Source of the DNA: a virus
DNA: 64,000 nucleotides
Strand: one strand, 5' to 3'
IMG/VR virus record: IMGVR_UViG_3300023240_000018
Coordinates: 6,086 to 70,085 of that record
The translations under genes and the position numbers were made by a program. A model generated the notes under the pieces. That model did not search any database and had not been told where the DNA came from. It saw only the letters and a list, made by a program, of their open reading frames with translations. Each line of letters opens with the position of its first letter. Position 1 is the stretch's first letter. Of this stretch, positions 6,635 to 63,876 are shown one piece after another.

Positions 6635-8356
6635 TCAGCCAAGAGGCTGCAGGAATAGTGGCTCGACTGAGACTCCGTGCTTAACTGAAACGATCAGCTG
6701 AGCCTCAGCGTACTCACCCGACTCCGAATCATACCCATCGACATCGAAAATGTCATAGTTGTGAAGACCTTCGTAAAGCCTCGAGGAGTCCTTCGAAGTG
6801 ATATTGAACGTTCCGACCAGTCCGCTTATCGAACCTGAAACCTTCAGCAGAGGCCGGCCAGAGTCATCGGAGATGCCGAGCAGGATCGTGTCGTATTCCG
6901 GCTCAGACAGGAACGTAAATGACAGCGAGATAGCGCTCGACTGCTTGAGAGAGATCGGATCACCGACTTCACCAGCCCCGAGGACAGTGACATCAATCGC
7001 CAAGGTGTCGCGAGGGAGCCCGCCAACAATTGCCCCTGCAGTTCCAGCACCGTAAGATCCAGGAAGTGGCGTTATCCAAGGATCTCCAGCTAATCCTGCA
7101 GCAGAGAGGGCCGCCCCAGCCGAACCAGATTCAGTGTGATCACTAAGTTGTGTATCGAAGACCGCTTCAGCAAGTGCCTCGGCGCTCACCCCACCCGGCC
7201 CATTGGCAAGGCTGGCGGTGGTATAAACATTGGTAGAAATCATCGCGGCAAGGCTGGTCAGCACCGCCAACCGCTCCGCCGACAGTTTAGTGTCCAGCGA
7301 TGCCTGCGTGGCGAATCCGGAAACCATATCCGTGTTAGTTGTCGTCGTATCAACAAGCGCCACGCGTGGAATGATTGCCCCAGTATGTGTGACACCTGAC
7401 AACACGATCCCAGTCGCTGACGTTATATTTGTCGGCGTCGCGAATCCTGTCGCCGTCACCAGCGATGTAAGGTCACTCCCCGTGCCAAACGCAGCCAGGA
7501 CCGCCGCAGCATTGTGCGTCGAAAACCCGGTTGCAGTCGCCCAATCGCCTTGATTACTCTGTAGGTCGTCCGTGTCCTCCAGTATCGATGTGATGTTGGT
7601 TTGCATCGTCACCAAATTCGACCATTGAGCGTCCGCCTTCAACGCGGCAACAATTGCCAAAGGTGAAGCATCCCCCTGGACCCAATCAGCAGCGATTGCA
7701 TCAGCTAACGCCCCGATGAAATCTGCCCCATCCCCGGTGTTGATTAAGGCCAAATCGATGACTCCAGCCAGTGTTGACCGCTCGCCGCTTGTTAACGCAT
7801 ATCCTGTTTTGTCAGAGTTGGTTCCTACGGTGACGGCAAACGTAAACGCTGACAAGGTCCGAGTCGTCGAAGTCCAAACATCAGATGCGGAATGAGTGCT
7901 CAATCCGTCTTGAATCGCAGTCACGGCTGTAGTGTTCGGTGCGTCAACTAGATCCATTTCATCGCCCGCCACGGATGCACCTAATGCCACCGCTGACCCA
8001 TCATAACCGCCGACATAGATGTCCGTCGGTCCGGAATCACAATCTGCTAACTCAATCCACACTCTCACCCGCGTTCCTGCGGTTGCCAGCACAGCATCAG
8101 CAAGTCCAATTTTGTACCACCCGTTGCCGACGTGATAAATGCCCCAGTCAGCATGTGACCCGCCTGCAGACATGGATGCTGGTGCTGGCGAGCCTGCAAC
8201 TGTAACCGACACGATGGCCGCATTGCCGATCTGGTATTTGATCGATAGGCCAGACGTGTTGTAAACGGCGTCTGTCTTTGGCAGGCCGTCGGCTACTGTC
8301 CAGAGTTTGCACTCAGTGTATTGATCGACGGACGCCGATTTGTAGACGTTGCTCAT
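6635..8356 (-). CDS. Ala/Thr/Gly-rich virion structural (fibre-like) protein
   Basis: ATG at 8356 overlaps upstream stop; low-complexity A/T/G-rich with repeated ATGF motifs. Confidence 0.55.
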   Translation of the reverse strand: MSNVYKSASVDQYTECKLWTVADGLPKTDAVYNTSGLSIKYQIGNAAIVSVTVAGSPAPASMSAGGSHADWGIYHVGNGWYKIGLADAVLATAGTRVRVWIELADCDSGPTDIYVGGYDGSAVALGASVAGDEMDLVDAPNTTAVTAIQDGLSTHSASDVWTSTTRTLSAFTFAVTVGTNSDKTGYALTSGERSTLAGVIDLALINTGDGADFIGALADAIAADWVQGDASPLAIVAALKADAQWSNLVTMQTNITSILEDTDDLQSNQGDWATATGFSTHNAAAVLAAFGTGSDLTSLVTATGFATPTNITSATGIVLSGVTHTGAIIPRVALVDTTTTNTDMVSGFATQASLDTKLSAERLAVLTSLAAMISTNVYTTASLANGPGGVSAEALAEAVFDTQLSDHTESGSAGAALSAAGLAGDPWITPLPGSYGAGTAGAIVGGLPRDTLAIDVTVLGAGEVGDPISLKQSSAISLSFTFLSEPEYDTILLGISDDSGRPLLKVSGSISGLVGTFNITSKDSSRLYEGLHNYDIFDVDGYDSESGEYAEAQLIVSVKHGVSVEPLFLQPLG

Positions 8357-10122
8357 GGGGCCATCCTTATGTTTCGCAGGTTGTTGTGTTGTGCGTTTTG
8401 TGCGGGGGCTCCTGATGATGGAGGAACGTATGTTGCATCGTATCCACCGTCGGTTATCGTCCAATTGCGTGGGGCCGCTGTGAGGATATCCCTCTGAGTT
8501 TGGCCTGTGTCGTGGTATTTACTAGAACCTCCGCCCCACGTGACGCTGTTGTTTGCATTAGCGGATAGCCCTGCCAATAGTGCGTTATAATCTCCGGTGT
8601 TTATCGTATTGCCGGCCCACGCGATCCCAAAATTAGTTCCGCTGCTTGTGTCGATCAGCGGGAAACTTGTTAGGGAATTATCTCGCCATGCGCCTGAAAA
8701 ATCAGTTCCGCTGCTTGTGTCAATCAATGGGAAACTTGTTAGGGAATTCCCGTCCCATGCGCTCTCAAAATCAGTTCCGCTGCTTGTGTCGATCAGCGGG
8801 AAACTTGTTAGGGAATTCCCGAGCCACGCGCCTGAAAAATTAGTTCCGCTGCTTGTGTCAATCAATGGGAAACTTGTTAGGGAATTATTGAACCATGCGC
8901 TCCCAAAATTAGTTCCACTGCTTGTATCGATCAGCGGGAAACTTGTTAGGGAATTCCCGAGCCACGCGCCTGAAAAATTAGTTCCGCTGCTTGTGTCGAT
9001 CAGCGGGAAACTTGTTAGGGAATTATTGAGCCATGCGTTCCCAAAATTAGTTCCGCTGCTTGTGTCGATCAGCGGGAAACTTGTTAGGGAATTATCTCGC
9101 CATGCGCCTGAAAAATTAGTTCCTCTGCTTGTGTCAATCAATGGGAAACTTGTTAGCGAATTCCCTCGCCATGCGTTCCCAAAATCAGTTCCGCTGCTTG
9201 TGTCGATCAGCGGGAAACTTGTTAGGGAATTCCCGTCCCATGCGAATGAAAAAGTAGTTCCACTGCTTGTATCGATCAGCGGGAAACTTGTTAGCGAATT
9301 CTCTCGCCATGCGCCTGAAAAATTAGTTCCGCTGCTTGTGTCAATCAATGGGAAACTTGTTAGGGAATTATTGAGCCATGCGAATGAAAAATTAGTTCCG
9401 CTGCTTGTGTCAATCAATGGGAAACTTGTTAGCGAATTGTTGACCCATGAATATCGAAAATTAGTTCCGCTGCTTGTGTCAATCAATGGGAAACTTGTTA
9501 GCGAATTGTTGAACCATGCGAATAGAAAATTAGTTCCGCTGCTTGTGTCGATCAGCGGGAAACTTGTTAGCGAATTCTCTCGCCATGCGAATGAAAAAAT
9601 AGTTCCACTGCTTGTGTCAATCAATGGGAAACTTGTTAGCGAATTCCCTCGCCATGCGTTCCCAAAATTAGTTCCGCTGCTTGTGTCAATCAGCGGGAAA
9701 CTTGTTAGCGAATTATCTCGCCATGCGAATGAAAAATCAGTAACAAACCCAGTCACTGCTGTTGCGTGATCCGTTGCTGTGATGGTCAAATTGGAGCATC
9801 CGTAGAACGCATCCTCAAACGTGATCCACTTGTTCGTTCCCCAGTTGGCCAACTCCAAGACCTTCAGTTTATCGCCGCCATTATTGAATTTAATAGCGGG
9901 AAATCCACCGGTTGATGACTCCGTGATGCTCAGAGTGTAATCTCCACCAGATGAATACGTGTGAGTCCAACTTGATCCGCTATTTATCGTCTCGTCCGCT
10001 CCACCGTCGCCCCAATCGATGACAAAATCGTACGTCTCGCCCGAATCACCCGGCAGGGTGAATTGCGTGCTACTGGATGTGCCAGAGTTGGTTGTTCGGA
10101 TCAATAGCTGGAATGCACTCAC
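8353..10122 (-). CDS. PKD-like domain plus BspA/DUF285-type repeat adhesin (putative receptor-binding or decoration protein)
   Basis: IDWGDG...THTYSSGGDY PKD signature, WG...W.TFEDAFYGCSNL, then 16 x 23-aa repeats. Confidence 0.75.
   Translation of the reverse strand: MSAFQLLIRTTNSGTSSSTQFTLPGDSGETYDFVIDWGDGGADETINSGSSWTHTYSSGGDYTLSITESSTGGFPAIKFNNGGDKLKVLELANWGTNKWITFEDAFYGCSNLTITATDHATAVTGFVTDFSFAWRDNSLTSFPLIDTSSGTNFGNAWRGNSLTSFPLIDTSSGTIFSFAWRENSLTSFPLIDTSSGTNFLFAWFNNSLTSFPLIDTSSGTNFRYSWVNNSLTSFPLIDTSSGTNFSFAWLNNSLTSFPLIDTSSGTNFSGAWRENSLTSFPLIDTSSGTTFSFAWDGNSLTSFPLIDTSSGTDFGNAWRGNSLTSFPLIDTSRGTNFSGAWRDNSLTSFPLIDTSSGTNFGNAWLNNSLTSFPLIDTSSGTNFSGAWLGNSLTSFPLIDTSSGTNFGSAWFNNSLTSFPLIDTSSGTNFSGAWLGNSLTSFPLIDTSSGTDFESAWDGNSLTSFPLIDTSSGTDFSGAWRDNSLTSFPLIDTSSGTNFGIAWAGNTINTGDYNALLAGLSANANNSVTWGGGSSKYHDTGQTQRDILTAAPRNWTITDGGYDATYVPPSSGAPAQNAQHNNLRNIRMAP
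8617..9740 (-). repeat. 69-bp coding tandem repeat, 16 units (NSLTSFPLIDTSSGT-xFxxAWxx)
   Basis: GGGAAACTTGTTAG recurs every 69 nt. Confidence 0.95.
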
Positions 10123-13976: not shown

Positions 13977-14527
13977 TGCGACGCCTCCAGTTTGTCGGCC
14001 ATCTGAACCAGCGTCCCGGCGTCAATTGCCTCGGCCAGCATGTCGGTATACGGCACCCAGTCCGTCCTGCGTGCGGCTGCTCGTCGGTCATTTACGGCGA
14101 CGACGATTGCTCGGCGATCGGCTGCGGTTTCTGCTGGCATCGTCGCGGCGTCTCGCAGGATTGCGGCTTGGCTGGCTCGGTCAGCCGCATGGCACGTGGC
14201 CAACACGTCGCCGACAACCATCTGATCCAGCGTCCCGGCGTCAATTGCCTCAGCCAACATTTCGGTGTACGGCATCCAGTCCGTCGTATGCGCTGCTGCT
14301 CGCCGATCGTTTACTGCTACGACGATCGCCCGGAGGTCATCCGAAGTCACCGCGGGCATCGTGGCGGCGTCTCGCAGAATTGCAACCTGGCTGGCACGGT
14401 CAGCCGCATGGCTGTTTGCTAACGCCTCGCCGACAGCCGACGTGGTATCTGACGTACTATCCGACGTAGGCACCAGCAGCAAAACGCCGCCGATAATCGC
14501 GATAATTGCGGGGGCGAATCGTTTCAT
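13973..14527 (-). CDS. membrane-anchored protein with 73-aa tandem duplication
   Basis: N-terminal TM/signal; 219-bp imperfect direct repeat. Confidence 0.75.
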   Translation of the reverse strand: MKRFAPAIIAIIGGVLLLVPTSDSTSDTTSAVGEALANSHAADRASQVAILRDAATMPAVTSDDLRAIVVAVNDRRAAAHTTDWMPYTEMLAEAIDAGTLDQMVVGDVLATCHAADRASQAAILRDAATMPAETAADRRAIVVAVNDRRAAARRTDWVPYTDMLAEAIDAGTLVQMADKLEASQ

Positions 14528-40336: not shown

Positions 40337-41529
40337 GATCTCTCCCACACTTGAATGCTATTCGATGCTCTCTCAAGGCGTAGGATATTTTCCGATTCTG
40401 TCGTGACGCCGGGAGAGAATGTTTCCAGTGATGGTAGGTCATCAAATCCGGGGACTGTTATCGAAGCCGACAGCCCCCCGCGATCAGCGCTCATTGCCTC
40501 ATTCTCTGCCTGAATTAGCATCTCGGTGAATTCAGCTTCTCGACCTTCTGGTGCTATAATAAGGCTTCCCTGTGGCTTGGCAATTAACTCAGGACTAGCC
40601 GGCCCTTCCTGTTGAATCTCGGCTGTGAGTTCGTTGTCTGCTGCCTGGACAAGTGCGACTGGAAGCGGCAGGACTTCATTGAATTCCGTGGGTTCAGTGG
40701 GTTCCGTTGGGGTTGCGTCTGTTGCTGATTCATCGATTCGGGGCTTATTGACATCTGCCAGTTCGGACTCTGGCTGACGTGAGTTCTCCTGCTCGACGGC
40801 ACCGTCTCCGGTGAACAAATCTGGGTCAGCAATATCTGCTTCCGGAGTAATAAAAACATCCGGGAGAGTGGGACTCGATACAGTAACTACATCTGCCAGT
40901 TCGGACTCTGGCTGACGTGAGTTCTCCTGCTCGACGGCACCGTCTCCGGTGAACAAATCTGGGTCAGCAATATCTGCTTCCGGAGTAATAAAAACATCCG
41001 GGAGAGTGGGACTCGATACAGTAACTACATCAGTGACTGATGCAGGGCTGGCAGATGCTGAAAGGACTTCACTCTGGTCTGGTACTGTTGGACTAATCGA
41101 TTGACTCGTATCTGCTCCTGCTGTGATCGCCTCTGCATGTTGTGCCTCTGTGGTTAACGGTTCAGTTGATTCGGCTTCGTCTCCGATCGCAGAAATCAAT
41201 TCCTCTGGTGGGGAAACTAGCGTTGGCTGACTCTCCGGGACTTCGTTCGCGACAGCGGAATCTCCCTCCGTCGCTTCTTCTTGTGTGAAAATGGCCGAGT
41301 CCATGGCCGGTTCTGACATCAGTGTCAAGCTCAACGAATCCTCCGTTAGCTCGTCAACATCCCTGACTTCACGTTTCTCTCCATCGGAGGAAACTATGTC
41401 TGTGCGTTCATCCAGTTCCTGATCACGCGAAAGACTAATGAGTCCCTGCATGTCATCATCCAGCATGGATGCCGGATCTTTATTTCCCTGGCGTGCCAGG
41501 AATTCCGAGATGAATTTTCGGTAGTCCAT
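40333..41529 (-). CDS. highly acidic low-complexity protein at tape-measure position
   Basis: E/D/P/S/T-rich; exact 46-aa duplication. Confidence 0.65.
   Translation of the reverse strand: MDYRKFISEFLARQGNKDPASMLDDDMQGLISLSRDQELDERTDIVSSDGEKREVRDVDELTEDSLSLTLMSEPAMDSAIFTQEEATEGDSAVANEVPESQPTLVSPPEELISAIGDEAESTEPLTTEAQHAEAITAGADTSQSISPTVPDQSEVLSASASPASVTDVVTVSSPTLPDVFITPEADIADPDLFTGDGAVEQENSRQPESELADVVTVSSPTLPDVFITPEADIADPDLFTGDGAVEQENSRQPESELADVNKPRIDESATDATPTEPTEPTEFNEVLPLPVALVQAADNELTAEIQQEGPASPELIAKPQGSLIIAPEGREAEFTEMLIQAENEAMSADRGGLSASITVPGFDDLPSLETFSPGVTTESENILRLERASNSIQVWERS
40751..41031 (-). repeat. 138-bp tandem duplication (2 copies, no mismatch seen by eye)
   Basis: ACATCTGCCAGTTCGGACTC... 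at 40751 and 40889. Confidence 0.95.
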
Positions 41530-54001: not shown

Positions 54002-55459
54002 CTACGACGACATCACATCTTCAAGGAATTCCATGTCCCGCCGCGCGTTCTTCACTGCAATGTAGGACCACTCGCGGTCGATGTACCCGTCCTTGTCCTT
54101 CGGACGAGTCTTGAACCACTTTTTCAGGGCTTTCCTTTCAATGGCCGTGTGCCTCGCCTTGTTGTTCTTGATCCACGCACACGAATTAAATCGCGTTGCG
54201 GGAACAACTGGCCGGCCCAACCTAGCGGCGATCCTCTCCTCCATGAAATCCGCAACTTCGGTGATCTTCATTCCTTTGACATCCAGCAGTTCCCGGACCT
54301 CACGGAACTGTTCGACCTTTATCAGATTTGGGTGGCACGTCCATCCATTTTCATTGTAGACAACATCCATCCATTTCGGGACGAACTTGTCGGTGAACCA
54401 TTTCCCGCGCAGTGATCTAAGGTGACTCATCGCCATTTTCGTTCGCCAACTAATATCGCGAGACTCCCACGCCGCCATCATTGACAGGATTTCAATGCTC
54501 TGCCGGCCCATTGGTGTTCGCGTGTCCAATCCACAGCCCGTGACTATGTGAATGTCTCGTTCAAGCAGAGACTTTATCGTGTTCGCCATGTCATGGACTG
54601 AGCGGAATATTCGGTCGAGTCGCGAGACGCAAACGCAGTCGTACGGTTGCAGCTGATCGTACATCTGCTTGCCAAGCGGCCGGTCCTTCCAATCAACGGA
54701 GAACGCCGACACCCCATGATCAGAGAACAGGTCGGGGATTCGCTGATACCCAATCGCCACCATTCGGTCGATTGTTGCCTGAACCGTTGGTATTTGAGAC
54801 GCGACGCTTTGGCCCCCAGTCGAGACGCGAGTGTAGCCCCACGCTCGACCGCATTTTTTCGGCAGCCCGTAGTCGAACGTGATGTTCGCGTCTCTAACCA
54901 GTGCGGCCAGCTTGGGGTTATTCGCCTGCAGTATTTTGGTTTTCGGCTGAGTAAGAAAACCGGCACTCTTCGCAGCAGCGACAGCCTTCCCTTCCCTGAC
55001 CCTCGCTGAAATCACGTCGCTCTTGAACTGCGCGAACGACGCGCACATGTTCGCCATCAGTTTGCCGGTTGGAGTTCGCATGTCGAACTGGTCGCGAACA
55101 AAGATTGGATTGATCTTGGCGGACTGGAACGACTTGCACATCCCGCTGAAGTCATGAACAGAACGGAACATTCTATCAATCGACAGACAAATGAAACTGT
55201 CTCCCGGTTTCATCGCCATCCACATCTTCTTGAAGCCCGGTCGCTCCATCGCAGGAATTTTCCACGCAGAGACACCCGGGTCAGCGAACACGCCGGGGTT
55301 GCGGTAGTTCGACTTCCTGCCGAGTTTGAGACCGTGAGTGGCTGCGTACTCACGGCAAGCCTTTGCTTGAGTGATAAGTGAGTCGCCTTCGCAGGCCTGC
55401 TCTTTCGTGGAAACGCGGACGTAGATGTATGTGACCATCAGGCTGGAGTTTTTTAACAT
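54002..55459 (-). CDS. serine recombinase with two tandem resolvase catalytic domains
   Basis: Domain 1 YVRVST...D.GVSA...RPG...IDRMFRS...TPTGKLM; domain 2 YTRVST...D.GVSA...RP.G...LDRIFRS...TPMGR. Confidence 0.9.
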   Translation of the reverse strand: MLKNSSLMVTYIYVRVSTKEQACEGDSLITQAKACREYAATHGLKLGRKSNYRNPGVFADPGVSAWKIPAMERPGFKKMWMAMKPGDSFICLSIDRMFRSVHDFSGMCKSFQSAKINPIFVRDQFDMRTPTGKLMANMCASFAQFKSDVISARVREGKAVAAAKSAGFLTQPKTKILQANNPKLAALVRDANITFDYGLPKKCGRAWGYTRVSTGGQSVASQIPTVQATIDRMVAIGYQRIPDLFSDHGVSAFSVDWKDRPLGKQMYDQLQPYDCVCVSRLDRIFRSVHDMANTIKSLLERDIHIVTGCGLDTRTPMGRQSIEILSMMAAWESRDISWRTKMAMSHLRSLRGKWFTDKFVPKWMDVVYNENGWTCHPNLIKVEQFREVRELLDVKGMKITEVADFMEERIAARLGRPVVPATRFNSCAWIKNNKARHTAIERKALKKWFKTRPKDKDGYIDREWSYIAVKNARRDMEFLEDVMSS

Positions 55460-56624: not shown

Positions 56625-57035
56625 CTAGTAAATGGAAACACCCGAAAAGTTGTTCAGATTTTGCTGTTGGTTTTTTTTGTGGTGGCATTTCTCAATGCAC
56701 AGTATTTGCAGATGATCGGTTTCGCAGAATAGACGTTCACAAAATGCCGCGAACTCCGGCCACGTCTTCATCGGCCCGCATGGATGCAGGTGGTCCACCT
56801 GCACCTGTTTTCGCGGATACCATTCGCCGCATTCCGCGCACTGGAACTCCCACTTCAGTCGTTTGTTGCTGCTCTGACTCGGCCGCTTGGCTGCATCCAG
56901 TGCAAGCCTTGCTAGTGGAGGCCATCGCATTGACGCGCGACGAACATTAGACCGCAGGAATCCCCAGAACGCGGCCTCTGTCCATTCGCCGCCTGCTCTA
57001 GTCCGTGGCACTCGATTGGTCTTCGGTTTCCTCAT
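56625..57035 (-). CDS. HNH endonuclease
   Basis: QCAEC...VQVDH..PCG...LQILC..KCH.KK. Confidence 0.85.
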   Translation of the reverse strand: MRKPKTNRVPRTRAGGEWTEAAFWGFLRSNVRRASMRWPPLARLALDAAKRPSQSSNKRLKWEFQCAECGEWYPRKQVQVDHLHPCGPMKTWPEFAAFCERLFCETDHLQILCIEKCHHKKNQQQNLNNFSGVSIY

Positions 57036-57269: not shown

Positions 57270-57343
57270 TTGGTGGGGCAGGATTCGAACCTGCAACTTA
57301 CCGCTTAGAAGGCGGCTGCTCTATCCAATTGAACTACCCACCA
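57270..57343 (-). tRNA. tRNA-Arg(TCT), no encoded CCA
   Basis: TGGTGGG/CCCACCA acceptor, D-arm GTTCAATTGGATAGAGC, anticodon arm GCCGC-CTTCTAA-GCGGT, T-arm GCAGG-TTCGAAT-CCTGC. Confidence 0.92.
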
Positions 57344-57475: not shown

Positions 57476-57613
57476 CTCTGAGTTAATATCTCATATCAAT
57501 CTCCCTTGTTCTCTGGCCTGCACAGTCGGCCGTAATTCGAATTCGAGTTCTCAGGCTTGCGGAGTACGCAATCGTCGTTTGTGCTCTGTGTCGGGCCTGA
57601 TTCCTCTGGTGAC

Positions 57614-58159
57614 CTACAGCTTCACCAACACCACGCTGACCGGATCAGTAGCCAGAAGGTGCGAACTATTCCAGTGCTGAGGGAAAAGGATAGCATGACC
57701 GCCAGCATCAACGAAACGCTTGATGTTGTGCTCGCCATCGTCGATCAATGTGGTTTCCTGATCCGCCATCAACCACTTGTCTGGACCCATCTGATAACGA
57801 CGAAACCGCTTTCCGAAGTTTCGGTGGAGCCATGCCAACTTGCCAGCCAGCGACATCGCATCAGAGCTCGGAGACGTGGCGATCCACCAATCATAACCAG
57901 CGTTCTCAATCACGCCGATGAGATCGTCAATCCATGAATGGCGATCCAGCCCCTCCCAGAACTCATAGCCAGCTTTGTCGATCGCCGCCCACATCTCTCG
58001 GGGACTTACGCCAAGCACCTTCGAAATGTCATACTCGCCAGCCGGCCAAGAACACGGACTGAACTCAACCCCAAACAGCCGCATCGCGGCTGGAGTGAAC
58101 TGAGTCAGAACACCGTCCATGTCAATCAAAACTTTTTTTCTCTTCACGTCAATCTCCAT
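57614..58159 (-). CDS. HAD-family 5'(3')-deoxyribonucleotidase (NT5C-like)
   Basis: IDMDGVL, IATSP, K..WL, K....LIDD..HN. Confidence 0.88.
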   Translation of the reverse strand: MEIDVKRKKVLIDMDGVLTQFTPAAMRLFGVEFSPCSWPAGEYDISKVLGVSPREMWAAIDKAGYEFWEGLDRHSWIDDLIGVIENAGYDWWIATSPSSDAMSLAGKLAWLHRNFGKRFRRYQMGPDKWLMADQETTLIDDGEHNIKRFVDAGGHAILFPQHWNSSHLLATDPVSVVLVKL

Positions 58160-58267
58160 GAAAAAAACCGCAAGCACTCTATATTAACCGCCGACCGACA
58201 CATCGCATAATGGGAAGTCGGCGGCCTTCACTGCCTACACAGCAGTGATTCTTGTTTCATAATAAAC

Positions 58268-58359
58268 GCACCATTGGTGCCCTCGCCGTGCCGTGCCGCG
58301 CCTTGCACTGCCACGCCCTGCCACGCCGTGCCACGCCAGGCTTTGCCGGGCCGGGCCGT
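58268..58359 (-). ncRNA. putative guide-like RNA: 15 x (NN-GGC) pentamer tract plus terminal hairpin
   Basis: Strict 5-nt periodicity 58285-58359; hairpin GCACC-AAT-GGTGC at 58268-58280; RNA status inferred. Confidence 0.65.
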
Positions 58360-58362
58360 GAA

Positions 58363-59010
58363 TTAAATCTCAGTGACAACAGCATCTGACTGACCATACG
58401 GACCCGGAGTCTTCCCCGCTGGTCGCCAGTCACACAACCCAGCCTTGCCCGCCAGTTCGAACAATTGTGCCAAAATCACCGGCGTGATATCCGGCTTCAG
58501 GACCATGACTTCGCCGGTCACTGTCCATTGTGAAAATTTCGGGCGAACGCGAATGTGCTTCGCTTTACCAACACTGGCCCGCTTGACAAACAAGTCAAAA
58601 CCCATTTTTTTACAAGCAGCCGACTGCTCAGCAAATGTCAACTCACGCATGCCAATAACGTCATCCCACTTGATTTGCTTGCCGTTGTTGCGGAACTCGC
58701 ACGCCTCGGTCGAAATCAACAGGCCTGTTTGGGTGAGTTCCTTGAAAGTCTTCTGCCCCTTCAAATTCAACTGAGTCCCAGCCTGGCGAAGTGCGACCAT
58801 GATGTTCTCCGACGGCATCACGATGTGCCCTCCATCGTGGTAGCAATACGTTTGCCATGTCCAAGGCGGCGAACGGTCATCACCAGCTACACTCACGCCC
58901 TTGTTGATCGGGGATTTCCGCCATTCCTTCAACCCATCTGCCCCTTCGACATTGTCGGCGTGCATCAGCAAAGGCATAAACCCAGTCATCGTAAATCTGA
59001 AATTCTTCAT
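58363..59010 (-). CDS. stand-alone Cas7-group RAMP-like protein
   Basis: GGAG RBS; TG..PLLMH, IVMPSENIMVALRQA, RVRPKF..W, GLCDWRP....GPYG Gly-rich loop. Confidence 0.7.
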   Translation of the reverse strand: MKNFRFTMTGFMPLLMHADNVEGADGLKEWRKSPINKGVSVAGDDRSPPWTWQTYCYHDGGHIVMPSENIMVALRQAGTQLNLKGQKTFKELTQTGLLISTEACEFRNNGKQIKWDDVIGMRELTFAEQSAACKKMGFDLFVKRASVGKAKHIRVRPKFSQWTVTGEVMVLKPDITPVILAQLFELAGKAGLCDWRPAGKTPGPYGQSDAVVTEI

Positions 59011-59023
59011 CCGTACTCTCCAT

Positions 59024-59066
59024 GAAAAAACCCGCTTCATGAGCGGCAAGACTCATGAGCGGGTTT
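59024..59066 (-). terminator. strong hairpin plus U-tract in leader of RAMP-like gene (attenuator-like)
   Basis: AAACCCGC-TCATGAG...CTCATGA-A-GCGGGTTT then T-run, just before RBS. Confidence 0.7.
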
Positions 59067-59127
59067 CCCTTGCCACGATTACTCGCGGAGTGCTTCCAGT
59101 GTGCGACACTTGCCTGTCGACTAAAGG

Positions 59128-59156
59128 ATAGTACCGATGCCGGTACAACACGTCAA
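59128..59156 (-). promoter_or_regulatory. sigma70-type promoter TTGACG-N17-TACTAT with operator GTACCG-N4-CGGTAC
   Basis: Consensus spacing; same palindrome in the same position as at 32831-32859. Confidence 0.8.
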
Positions 59157-59186
59157 CTGATATTCCGAAACAAATGTGAGATCATT

Positions 59187-59681
59187 TCACTTCTTGCTTC
59201 GATTGACTATCTCCTCAAACTCAATGTCAGTGATCCGATTCACGCCGCGAGGCGGAGTGTACGACCGGCTGTGAATTTCAAACAAGAACACAAGGGTCTT
59301 CTTGCACCAGAAATACCCCATGGTCTGAAAGAAGCCGGGCTTGTAGCTGATAATCTTCTGAAGATCCACAACACACATTACCCGCAGAGATTCCATTTCT
59401 TTGCGGACCAGACCACCCTTTTTAGTCCGCCGAGGACGCCAGTGCGTTGAGTCATACGCCCCGCTGGAACTTAACTCTGGGTGACACCACTCTGGCCCGG
59501 GACACACATGTGAGACAATCCCCGAAATGCGATGGCGGTGGAAACTACCAGTGTAGTAATCCGTGCCGCCGTACGTTTTCATCCACTTCCTTGCGGCCCG
59601 GTGACACTTCAGTTCCTGCTTGAAATGCTCCTGAATCTCAACCGACAATTCCACTCCAGTTACTCTATAGTAAGCCATCAT
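59187..59681 (-). CDS. hypothetical protein
   Basis: 164 aa, GGAG RBS. Confidence 0.65.
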   Translation of the reverse strand: MMAYYRVTGVELSVEIQEHFKQELKCHRAARKWMKTYGGTDYYTGSFHRHRISGIVSHVCPGPEWCHPELSSSGAYDSTHWRPRRTKKGGLVRKEMESLRVMCVVDLQKIISYKPGFFQTMGYFWCKKTLVFLFEIHSRSYTPPRGVNRITDIEFEEIVNRSKK

Positions 59682-60193
59682 TCTCCATTCTTTGAAACAA
59701 GACTCAGCCGCTCATGCTCGGCCGTCCACTCAGCGATCAAACGATCCGCATGAGCCTCAACCGACAAACTTGCAACCAGGTCCACGAAAGAAACAAAATG
59801 CTCAATGCCATAAGATGAACCGTCCACATTAAACACCCAGCGATAAGACACGCCAGTCGGAATTCTGCCTCCGCCCCACGCTGAACTAAACATCATGAGC
59901 TCGCCGAAAGCGAACGCCAACCGAAGACGACCATACAACTCACCAGCCAACTGGAAGTCGCGGTGAGGACCAGTCGCCACCGAACTCGCCACCGAACGGA
60001 GATTCGCTGAGAAAATTGCCCGCCGACAATACCAACGATAACTCAACGGCGAATAACAAGCATCACTGCCCGCAGCTGTCAACTTCGCAATGTCCTGACG
60101 AACAACCTTCGGACTCACCTTCAACGATACCGAAATCTCGCTCAGCCTCGCACCAACCAGAAGCAACGACTCCAACGAAACCAATCGATTCAT
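59678..60193 (-). CDS. HTH-containing hypothetical protein
   Basis: RL..LE.LL..GA.LSEI...L.VS.K.VRQDI..L wHTH-like N-terminus. Confidence 0.55.
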   Translation of the reverse strand: MNRLVSLESLLLVGARLSEISVSLKVSPKVVRQDIAKLTAAGSDACYSPLSYRWYCRRAIFSANLRSVASSVATGPHRDFQLAGELYGRLRLAFAFGELMMFSSAWGGGRIPTGVSYRWVFNVDGSSYGIEHFVSFVDLVASLSVEAHADRLIAEWTAEHERLSLVSKNGE

Positions 60194-62600: not shown

Positions 62601-63215
62601 CTAGCCTAGCCGGTGCTCTAGCTTTGCCAGATCTGCCGATTGAGACGCAACGGCAAACCAGGCTGCGCCTTCGGCGCTGCCATGCATCGACCGGGTAAAT
62701 ACAACACCATCGTGTAGGGTTTCGAGGGCGATTGTGTGGACCGATGCCCGAAAAGGTTTGCCTCCGGCGCGAAACGAGTTTAATCCTCGCATGATTTTTC
62801 CAGTTGAGCCCGATTTGACAAGTCGAACACGGTAGGTAACGGTTGGCGCTGGTTTGCGTTTTGGTTTTGGTGCTGGTTTTGGTGTCGGTTTTGGTGTCGG
62901 TGCGAGCTCAACAGCTGCAGACTCAATAGCTGCCTTTTTAGCTGCCTTTTTAGCTGCCTTTTTAGCTGCCTTTTTGGCCTTTCGCTCTCGTTTTTCAGCC
63001 GGGGTTTCGTCCGGGGTTTCGTCCGCCTCGAGAATCGCAGCCTCGAGAATAGACCGAAGGTGATTGGACTCGCAAAGTTTGGCGCACTTGATGTCGTCCG
63101 ATAGTAGCTCGGCGCGTTTTTTAGGGTCTCGAAGGACCGCTTCGAGGCTTTTAAGCTGCATTTCTTCTCGTGTCGGAACCGGAACGAGCGTGTAGTCTGT
63201 TGTTGTTGGTGTCAT
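62601..63215 (-). CDS. basic protein with (KKAA)n and PK repeats (histone H1-like linker)
   Basis: AGGA RBS; 12-bp repeat TAGCTGCCTTTT x3; PKPTPKPAPKPKRKP. Confidence 0.7.
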   Translation of the reverse strand: MTPTTTDYTLVPVPTREEMQLKSLEAVLRDPKKRAELLSDDIKCAKLCESNHLRSILEAAILEADETPDETPAEKRERKAKKAAKKAAKKAAKKAAIESAAVELAPTPKPTPKPAPKPKRKPAPTVTYRVRLVKSGSTGKIMRGLNSFRAGGKPFRASVHTIALETLHDGVVFTRSMHGSAEGAAWFAVASQSADLAKLEHRLG

Positions 63216-63282
63216 TGTAGTTGTCCTGATTGTGGTTTGTGAGTGAAGCGTGAGTGTGAGTGTGAGTGAGTGTGTGTGAGTG

Positions 63283-63876
63283 TTACTGCAGAGATGACAT
63301 GCCGCCCAAGACGTCAAACGCGTAGTCCAAATAGGCATCTCGCGCCGTCTCAGCGCCCGGCGAACAGTGCTCTTCAACAGCGATTGCACAAGCCATTCGC
63401 CTGATTTGTCGATAATCCAGCGGCTGAGATTTGCGGTACCGTCGCACCGTTTTGATTGCCCGAATGCGAACGAGCAGTTTGGCGCGGCCCCCCAGCAATT
63501 CGGGATCGTCGGTCAACGACCTGCGACAGTCCGATAGCAGCCAGTGGGAGGATAAACCGCTGCGGGTATCGTCAGCAATTACAACGTCTGTGAGGCTGAT
63601 TGCGTGATCGTCCGGTATTGCTTGCCACTGCAGCGCGGAGAGCGTCGATCGTCGGCCGAAACCAGCTTGTCGTGCGATTGTCCGGGTCGCCTCGAGTAAC
63701 GCGTTTCTGGCTTGAGATCTCAACCGGCTTGGATTATCCCAGCTGGTCGACCGACTCAACAGGATCACCCACGCATGCTGACGTCTGTCGTGATGGTGTG
63801 CGCTGGTGGATAACGCAGCAGCGGATCCAAAAGTGTTGTTAACAAGGTCGATTTGCTGTTCAGTTAGCATCTTCAT
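63283..63876 (-). CDS. degenerate sigma70-region-2-like protein (tentative)
   Basis: AAGGA RBS; LTEQQ..LV..., D..Q.A...L......WD.P....S.A pattern. Confidence 0.4.
   Translation of the reverse strand: MKMLTEQQIDLVNNTFGSAAALSTSAHHHDRRQHAWVILLSRSTSWDNPSRLRSQARNALLEATRTIARQAGFGRRSTLSALQWQAIPDDHAISLTDVVIADDTRSGLSSHWLLSDCRRSLTDDPELLGGRAKLLVRIRAIKTVRRYRKSQPLDYRQIRRMACAIAVEEHCSPGAETARDAYLDYAFDVLGGMSSLQ

Follow-up and report, generated by a model that had tools for sequence, protein, structure and literature searches.

A probable single-guide VIPR cassette on a phage genome from salt-lake metagenomes

Introduction

Systems of the VIPR kind (for Viral Interference Programmable Repeat), described in 2026, consist of a Cas7-like protein, Vipr, and guide RNAs, termed vrRNAs, in which GGY and NN segments alternate (Y, pyrimidine; N, any nucleotide) (bioRxiv 10.64898/2026.04.26.720920). 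The subject here is a locus on the minus strand of a stretch of phage DNA, positions 6,086 to 70,085 of the IMG/VR record IMGVR_UViG_3300023240_000018. This whole 64,000-nt stretch is referred to below as the window, and the single 70,085-nt virus record from which it comes as the contig. The locus comprises a gene for a 215-aa Vipr homologue, vipr, and one tract of pentamers that follows it. At a probability of about 0.88 it is a compact VIPR cassette, whose protein-coated guide would silence competitor DNA without cutting it.

Published VIPR systems are described here as they appear in the available portions of the preprints. One Vipr protomer is bound per repeat, with the GGY sequestered and the NN presented; the complex binds double-stranded DNA that matches the NN dinucleotides, with one base skipped per unit, and silences transcription (10.64898/2026.04.26.720920, 10.64898/2026.04.26.720927). 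In nature, the targets are for the most part competing phages, satellites and prophages; vipr together with one vrRNA sufficed for silencing, which vap1 only enhanced, and natural systems with one vrRNA exist (10.64898/2026.04.26.720920). vrRNAs aimed at host REP elements as decoys have also been described (10.64898/2026.10.15.759431). Defining features include a run of at least four tandem YNNGG/GGY-NN units next to vipr, 9-16 being typical, a structured and conserved 3' tail after the repeats, and a mostly viral or proviral setting that lacks CRISPR array and cas operon; self-targeting is lacking in other published systems. Seven types, with 667 representative systems and 2,664 proteins in all, were in print in April 2026 (10.64898/2026.04.26.720920).

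VIPR is a newly described form of RNA-guided DNA recognition, with a gapped NN-x code and a triplex held by protein, and it has been proposed as the ancestor of the CRISPR RAMPs. TIGR-Tas (tandem interspaced guide RNA) systems, also outside CRISPR, likewise take their guide from an array in which constant and variable segments, both short, recur periodically. They differ from VIPR in their 18-nt period and in an effector of another fold, and the two kinds of system are unrelated. A TIGR-Tas effector has been named FpTasA (bioRxiv 10.64898/2026.10.21.760802).

The fold of the protein considered here is shared with Cas7 of CRISPR types III and VII, although sequence identity to Csm3, Cmr4, type VII Cas7 and Cas7-11 is 8-18%. 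Type III and VII systems combine Cas7 with a CRISPR array and with partner subunits (Cas10, Cas5, Cas11 or Cas14); the window has neither a partner Cas5, Cas10, Cas11 or Cas6 nor a CRISPR repeat. The step of VIPR is 5 nt with three bases sequestered, while that of type III/VII Cas7 is 6 nt with one base flipped; unlike types III and VII, the published VIPR systems target double-stranded DNA, not RNA (10.64898/2026.04.26.720920, 10.64898/2026.04.26.720927).

The type II VIPR exemplars, from Escherichia phage SUSP1 and a Pseudomonas fulva prophage (10.64898/2026.04.26.720920, 10.64898/2026.04.26.720927, 10.64898/2026.10.15.759431), resemble the present locus in several respects. All are phage-borne, with a small stand-alone RAMP that carries the same GGY-reading residues, guides of 9-16 GGY-NN units (15 here) ending in a structured 3' tail, and neither cas genes, CRISPR array nor self-target. 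In SUSP1, however, one guide lies upstream of vipr and an array of three downstream, whereas here a single guide begins 5 nt after the vipr stop codon. The protein is also distant in sequence from the exemplars (E 7e-7), a vap gene is lacking, a 13-nt hairpin takes the place of the pseudoknot as tail, and the gene is preceded by a conserved structured leader free of repeats.

A Vipr homologue on the phage contig

The vipr gene occupies 58363-59010 on the minus strand, with its TAA stop codon at 58363-58365. Automated listing of open reading frames (ORFs) extends it to 58363-59049 (228 aa, from a TTG start), while the ATG at 59010 gives a protein of 215 aa. The latter is favoured by a GGAGAG ribosome-binding site upstream and by the N-termini of 36 aligned homologues, in agreement with a reading of the gene made earlier from the letters alone (hereafter the sequence-only reading). 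That reading also took the product for a stand-alone Cas7/RAMP-like protein. Homology to the solved Vipr of phage SUSP1, together with the shared Cas7 fold, supports this assignment. In a phmmer search of the PDB with the single sequence, the only match below E 1 was 36pp_D, ‘SUSP1 Vipr protein’, at E 7.4e-7, and a profile built from 37 homologues matched 36pp at E 6.9e-11. No model in Pfam, NCBIfam or PADLOC matches the 215-aa protein; in PHROGs it matches an unannotated family, phrog_4652 (E 2.7e-15).

The residues that hold the GGY in SUSP1 Vipr, H17, R138, D177, W178 and R179, align with H17, R156, D194, W195 and R196 of the present protein, when the phmmer alignment is read against the residues named in bioRxiv 10.64898/2026.04.26.720927. 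Each of the five is invariant in 37 of 37 aligned homologues, and the intact ORF retains all 43 invariant positions of the family alignment. The protein, a minimal Cas7-like RAMP, belongs to a large family, with 1037 proteins at E ≤ 0.001 among 1116 candidates. Few of these come from isolated phages: a search of 50,697 phage records yields just three with E ≤ 0.001 (27-28% identity), two of them records of Gordonia phage Trine and the third Pseudomonas phage LESphi2. The nearest cellular homologues are encoded in metagenome-assembled genomes (MAGs), two from Planctomycetaceae (67% and 49% identity) and one from Planctomycetia (45%). The VIPR family is in this way extended to a phage from salt-lake metagenomes, with its nearest cellular relatives in Planctomycetaceae MAGs.

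Every defining feature of a VIPR system that can be computed from sequence was found at the locus; a vap gene, which is typical though not universal, was not. As the kind of system is already in print (bioRxiv 10.64898/2026.04.26.720920), the locus is a further member and does not constitute a new class. The name VIPR had been put forward tentatively by the sequence-only reading, with the caveat that no new class would then be involved, and both name and caveat prove correct given the SUSP1 homology and the matching architecture. Proteins of NCBI origin that are 74-80% identical exist, which probably placed the clade within reach of the PSI-BLAST search of the VIPR preprint. The locus adds nothing categorical; what is noteworthy about it is the single-guide configuration lacking vap, the covarying leader and the behaviour as a cassette.

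A single guide of fifteen pentamers

Downstream of the vipr stop codon come the letters TTCAC and then 15 phased pentamers (58283-58357, minus strand), the vrRNA guide region. Thirteen units are GGC-NN, one is AGC-CT and one TGC-AA; in order, the dinucleotides run CC CC AA CT GT AC GT AG GT AG AA GC AC AC GA. The tract begins 3 nt after the TAA if counted in the NN-GGC register and 5 nt after it in the GGY-NN register. According to a phased GGY-NN scan, it is the sole tract of at least five units on either strand of the window and of the whole contig. When the window was shuffled 200 times by mononucleotide, each shuffle had 0.175 such tracts on average, and the longest reached six units. Tandem Repeats Finder reports periods of 5 and 10 at the same place, and 15 units fall inside the published range of 9-16 (10.64898/2026.04.26.720920).

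The tract is closed by the 3' tail, GG followed directly by the hairpin GCACC-AAT-GGTGC, at 58268-58282 (the hairpin itself at 58268-58280), which receives a terminator-like score and is conserved, with covariation, among relatives. Beyond it, at 58259-58267 on the same strand, lies the U-rich GTTTATTAT. A 15-unit tract with a 5-nt period and a terminal hairpin had been reported from the letters alone, and both are present. The units were also described as perfectly phased, with a constant GGC; the phase holds without exception, but two of the 15 units are not GGY.

Only 5 nt separate the guide from the stop codon, and promoter-like sites on the minus strand are absent from the 3' part of the gene; the guide is therefore probably made from the 3' untranslated region (UTR) of the vipr mRNA, ending at the hairpin and U-run. 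At gathering score, Rfam models detect one tRNA only in the window, and hammerhead ribozymes were found neither in the window nor in 20 related loci.

Guides and tails of related loci

A set of 100 related loci was assembled, 80 from IMG/VR whose proteins are 38-85% identical to the one here and 20 from prokaryotic genome assemblies. A tract of at least five GGY-NN units is present in 80 of the 80 IMG/VR loci, and in 79 of them, L054 being the exception, it lies on the strand of the gene, with strand and position as in the window. Tracts with differing NN content next to homologous genes had been predicted, and this association is what was found. Over the 100 loci there are 416 tracts with 4891 units, in which positions 1-3 have entropies of 0.22, 0.19 and 0.68 bit, against 1.94 and 1.99 bit for positions 4-5, where all 16 dinucleotides occur. 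In the close clade the division is sharper, with at most 0.06 bit at positions 1-3 and about 1.9 bit at positions 4-5.

Even where two loci each encode a protein at 83-85% identity to that of the window, their guides are not the same. Compared with the 416 guides, the present one scores 0.69 at best, and the shuffle control has a mean of 0.65 and a maximum of 0.72, so that there is no resemblance above control. The tail, by contrast with the NN, is constant: the same GG-GCACC-AAY-GGTGC follows the guides of loci L001, L003 and L004, while other clades have compensating stems (AGCC/GGCT, TGCC/GGCA, CGCC/GGCG). A GC-rich hairpin stands exactly 2 nt past the last unit in 177 of the 416 tracts, AAT being its commonest loop; as a control, 93 of 400 random 40-mers carry one at any of 16 offsets.

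The locus shares most with its own clade, made up of IMG/VR loci L001-L005 and the Planctomycetaceae MAG locus L081 (67-85% protein identity). These are alike in the leader, in ‘TTCA’ after the stop codon, in GGC-only repeats and in the GG-GCACC-AAY-GGTGC tail. They differ from it in having 4-8 guides, in two arrays around an accessory gene of about 170 aa, where the present locus has one guide and no such gene. In the loci with 83-85% identical proteins, this ~170-aa gene, which has no Pfam match, lies between the two guide arrays, and a two-query tblastn search detects it in 34 of the 100 loci. More distant relatives carry a true vrRNA in the upstream position that is occupied by the leader here.

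Several relatives deserve separate mention. In LESphi2 (L167, 1594-1888), three tracts lie upstream of the vipr homologue, between it and a sigma-factor gene. Trine (L166, 2631-2690) has one 12-unit tract just downstream of its homologue gp41, within the annotated gp40 coding sequence; as a guide tract falls inside that coding sequence, its annotated start is probably wrong. Locus L054 (3657-4000) shows no clean tract, but has degenerate repeats before three typical tails (GG, then a GC-rich stem whose loop is AAT or TAT), and it may represent a decaying or non-canonical guide set. In locus L006, a tRNA is found just upstream of the upstream guide.

Promoter, leader and signs of mobility

The sequence-only reading gave vipr its own promoter and operator, and a leader hairpin. 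A promoter-like TTGACG-17 nt-TACTAT is present at 59128-59156 (minus strand), but since the consensus scan gives 8 sites in 2.8 kb, as opposed to 1.2 in shuffles, it should be regarded as a consensus match and nothing beyond that. Its -35 TTGAC and -10 GATAC/TACT align with, and are kept in, L003, L004, L005 and L081, in favour of the promoter. The ‘operator’ amounts to an inverted repeat of 6 bp within the spacer of the promoter (59146-59131); it is not kept in relatives and is not supported.

The promoter-like site is separated from the ribosome-binding site by a leader of some 115 nt, which an alignment with six relatives shows to be conserved in the close clade; with GGAGAG and up to the ATG, it occupies 59011-59127 (minus strand). 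RNAalifold predicts three hairpins from five distinct leader sequences; compensatory changes affect 11 of the 30 pairs, and the proposed leader hairpin is thereby borne out as real and covarying. The last of the three, at about 59031-59066, has a long stem followed by TTTTTT (59025-59030), directly before the ribosome-binding site, and a terminator-like element is called at 59046-59032. The motif GGCAAGGG, which precedes this last stem, resembles the GGCRA-GGG junction at the 3' ends of the clade's guides. No description of a leader of this kind, nor mention of guides placed in the 3' UTR of an mRNA or of transfer as a cassette between unrelated phages, was found in the available text of the VIPR preprints (10.64898/2026.04.26.720920, 10.64898/2026.04.26.720927, 10.64898/2026.10.15.759431). 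As a tentative proposal, and a rather doubtful one, the leader could be a repeat-less mimic of a vrRNA tail, or terminator, that is bound by Vipr, serving as an autoregulatory attenuator that would set the ratio of protein to a guide cut out of the 3' UTR of that same mRNA. If this were true, the clade would display how an RNA-guided module that doses itself from one transcript is put together and passed from phage to phage as a motif-bracketed cassette.

The 14-mer TTTTTTCATGGAGA has exactly two copies in the 64 kb, at 59017-59030 and 58153-58166 (minus strand), immediately before the vipr start and the start of the next gene, so that they bracket the vipr-vrRNA unit. The likeness reaches further, to GCGG upstream and into the start-codon region. 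The first copy of the resulting motif, GCGG-T(6-7)-CATGGAGA, spans 59017-59035, and the second spans 58153-58171, just upstream of the GTG of the next gene. In its GCGG-T6-CATGGAGA form, the motif may mark a recombination joint of the cassette, or may reflect a shared design of terminator and ribosome-binding site.

Homology to L001-L004 spans only the region from promoter to tail hairpin, and the flanks of the 100 loci, covered to at most 3 kb a side, contain no homologue of any of 10 neighbouring genes of the window. On this comparison, the locus appears to be one that moves as a cassette between otherwise unrelated phage genomes. With promoter, leader, a 215-aa protein, one 15-unit guide and a 13-nt hairpin tail in about 900 bp, and no accessory gene, it comes near to the smallest natural set-up. 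A natural configuration this small makes an attractive minimal scaffold for probing what VIPR requires.

Searches for a target

Targets were sought with the pattern derived from the 15 NN dinucleotides (30 positions) with one skipped nucleotide per unit, the published threshold being an 80% NN match. The scans detect targets with a long perfect run (8-10 units exact) or with at most three mismatches, and scattered mismatches escape them. The window contains no site at ≤ 3 mismatches. On the contig, the best match is 20 of 30 and results are similar for skips of 0 and 2, whereas a skip of 3 recovers only the tract itself; there is thus no self-target.

The wider collections gave a similar picture. 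In IMG/VR, the exact sub-patterns of units 1-10 and of units 5-14 had 0 matches each, units 1-8 had two and units 8-15 had 28, with a best full match of 21 of 30; units 4-11 had 11 matches, again 21 of 30 at best. Among metagenome contigs, units 3-12 had 0 matches and units 6-14 had 24 (best 23 of 30), about the number expected by chance, and the sub-pattern counts overall are close to the estimated chance numbers. The three MAGs with the nearest homologues had 0 matches, 398 genomes from the family to which the nearest cellular homologue belongs had none at ≤ 3 mismatches, and the 100 related VIPR loci (582 kb) gave 21 of 30 at best. In the reverse direction, 338 unique guides of the related loci were scanned against this phage, and no signal rose above the wrong-skip controls: 23, 28, 24 and 26 guides, all of them short, reached at least 80% for skips of 0, 1, 2 and 3. 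A role against a competitor can be suggested by analogy only.

Proposed mode of action and competing explanations

The working of the cassette can be pictured from the published systems. A single transcript from the promoter at about 59156-59128 would carry the structured leader, vipr and the guide, which begins 5 nt beyond the stop of the gene. The 3' end of the guide would be set by the GG-hairpin-U-rich tail (58259-58282), and its 5' end would arise by processing of the mRNA 3' UTR. Vipr protomers would then polymerise along the guide RNA, one per pentamer, H17, R156, D194 and W195 gripping both G's of each unit and R196 the pyrimidine. The 14-15 NN dinucleotides would be splayed out to pair with double-stranded DNA read as NN-x-NN-x, one base being skipped per unit, over about 44 bp. 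The bound complex would form a roadblock and silence transcription of a competitor (another phage, a satellite or a prophage) without cutting. Filament formation, the 1-nt-skip rule and silencing are carried over here from the SUSP1 and P. fulva work, while co-transcription, processing and the identity of the target are steps that we infer. The sequence-only reading had arrived at much the same scheme, with one protomer per pentamer, GGY gripped, NN displayed and silencing favoured over cleavage, and this coincides with the mechanism published for VIPR (10.64898/2026.04.26.720920, 10.64898/2026.04.26.720927).

A number of observations count against the locus being a working VIPR cassette of this type. 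The promoter, the processing site and the RNA ends are predicted only. Two of the 15 units are not GGY, and the tail is a 13-nt hairpin, as compared with a 40-60-nt pseudoknot in the SUSP1 clade. The 74 relatives that have 1.5 kb or more on each side include no single-tract locus: in 73 of them the tracts number at least two, and L054 lacks them. No homologue of the accessory gene is present on the 70-kb contig (best E 0.003 over 38 aa). No natural target reaching an 80% NN match was found in the collections searched, which leaves the biological role unproven. Finally, identity to SUSP1 Vipr is low, and SUSP1 is not listed when the 50,697 phage records are searched by tblastn at E up to 10; details of mechanism such as the skip length are transferred by inference for that reason.

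These observations invite the suggestion that the locus is a decaying or idle remnant of a locus that once comprised vipr, a vrRNA array, vap and a second vrRNA array, as its 83-85% identical relatives do, with one guide left and no useful activity. L001, L003 and L004 keep 4-8 guides and a vap-like gene; the single-tract state has no parallel among the fully flanked relatives, two units are degenerate and the target searches came up empty, all of which would suit decay. The ORF, on the other hand, is intact to the last invariant position, leader and tail hairpin are unbroken, as is the promoter-like site, and contigs of four salt-lake runs (2017-2019) show no variant in 2.1 kb, though these are possibly source samples. 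Natural one-vrRNA systems have been reported, and vipr with one vrRNA is sufficient (10.64898/2026.04.26.720920). Decay is accordingly considered improbable. It is less probable still that a working VIPR is directed against the host, or against the programme of the phage itself, as a form of gene regulation, instead of against a competing mobile element. One fixed guide does resemble a regulator more than an arsenal, and the vrRNAs directed at host REP elements as decoys offer a precedent (10.64898/2026.10.15.759431), but the phage's own 70 kb yields only 20 of 30 at best, and among the natural targets in print, other phages and satellites predominate by far (10.64898/2026.04.26.720920). The 398 cellular genomes point the same way, albeit weakly, as they may not include the host.

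Hardly credible is the notion that the tract is no guide RNA at all, but a G-rich recombination or structure motif in DNA, or else a C-terminal extension of the protein reached by stop-codon read-through. An alternative-frame ORF (58257-58433, 58 aa) does cross the tract, and GGC-rich repeats can adopt DNA structures. A 5-nt period cannot, however, hold a reading frame, and variation is limited to positions 4-5 whatever the codon phase. The restriction of tracts to the gene strand in 79 of 80 loci, where they end in a covarying RNA hairpin, likewise speaks for an RNA, and the adjacent protein is homologous to one solved in complex with such an RNA (10.64898/2026.04.26.720927). A compact VIPR cassette is therefore the preferred reading of the locus.

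The surrounding phage and its environment

The neighbours of vipr are a gene for a 5'-3' deoxyribonucleotidase and an ORF of no assigned function. Recognisable genes of the contig encode a primase, an ERCC4 nuclease, a Dam-type methyltransferase, ThyX, a Dda/RecD helicase, a serine recombinase, an HNH endonuclease and the deoxyribonucleotidase, whereas most other ORFs match nothing. The cut-off of a Cas Pfam model was reached by 0 of the 69 window ORFs, and the window contains no CRISPR array or partner Cas gene. The absence of both, noted at the outset from the letters, is thus upheld, Rfam detecting only the tRNA and the long repeat being coding.

This long repeat, of 69 nt in 16 tandem copies (8629-9741), is the only tandem repeat of CRISPR length in the window. 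It was considered as a CRISPR-like array and rejected, as it encodes a 23-aa protein repeat. In each 69-nt unit, 50 nt are constant and two short patches vary, the consensus of the encoded repeat being roughly NSLTSFPLIDTSSGTNFxxAWxx, within a 589-aa ORF (8353-10122, minus strand) that probably encodes a surface or tail-fibre-like protein. The HNH endonuclease gene (56628-57035) was likewise dismissed as a nuclease-type vap, since the deoxyribonucleotidase gene and the tRNA intervene and no homologue occurs in the flanks, up to 3 kb per side, of the 100 loci. The tRNA in question, a tRNA-Arg with anticodon TCT, lies at 57270-57343 (minus strand) in the 580-nt gap between the HNH endonuclease and deoxyribonucleotidase genes.

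DNA of the phage was found in 20 salt-lake metagenome runs from 2017-2019, possibly including its source; of the 23 runs listed with matching sequence, none is RNA. Over 57600-59700, contigs from four salt-lake DNA runs, which may be source samples, do not differ. Two of the runs also contain short contigs with other GGC-NN pentamer arrays, which hints at further VIPR loci in the salt-lake community. At 58403-58434, the contigs of three of the four runs break at one 32-mer, in the part of vipr that codes for the G-loop, and depth there is 25-137x compared with 6-20x. Because the contigs break there and the depth is much higher, it is suggested that several related vipr genes in the community share that 32-mer.

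Some further features of the window were noted in passing. The serine recombinase (54002-55459, minus strand, 485 aa) has two separate matches to the PF00239 resolvase N-terminal catalytic domain, an unusual tandem arrangement. The last 730 nt of the contig (63271-64000 of the window) are 87% identical to contig positions 428-1133, forming an imperfect long direct repeat with no clean terminal overlap. Of two tandem duplications, that at 40751-41031 is a perfect 138-nt repeat (2.0 copies, 100% identical) and that at 13999-14412 a 219-nt repeat (1.9 copies, 82% identical). Between 62245 and 63283, short tandem repeats of GT-rich or GGTT type have periods of 4-24 nt, mostly 6 and 12, and partly overlap a 262-aa ORF (62601-63389) with a low-complexity KKAA/PKP region.

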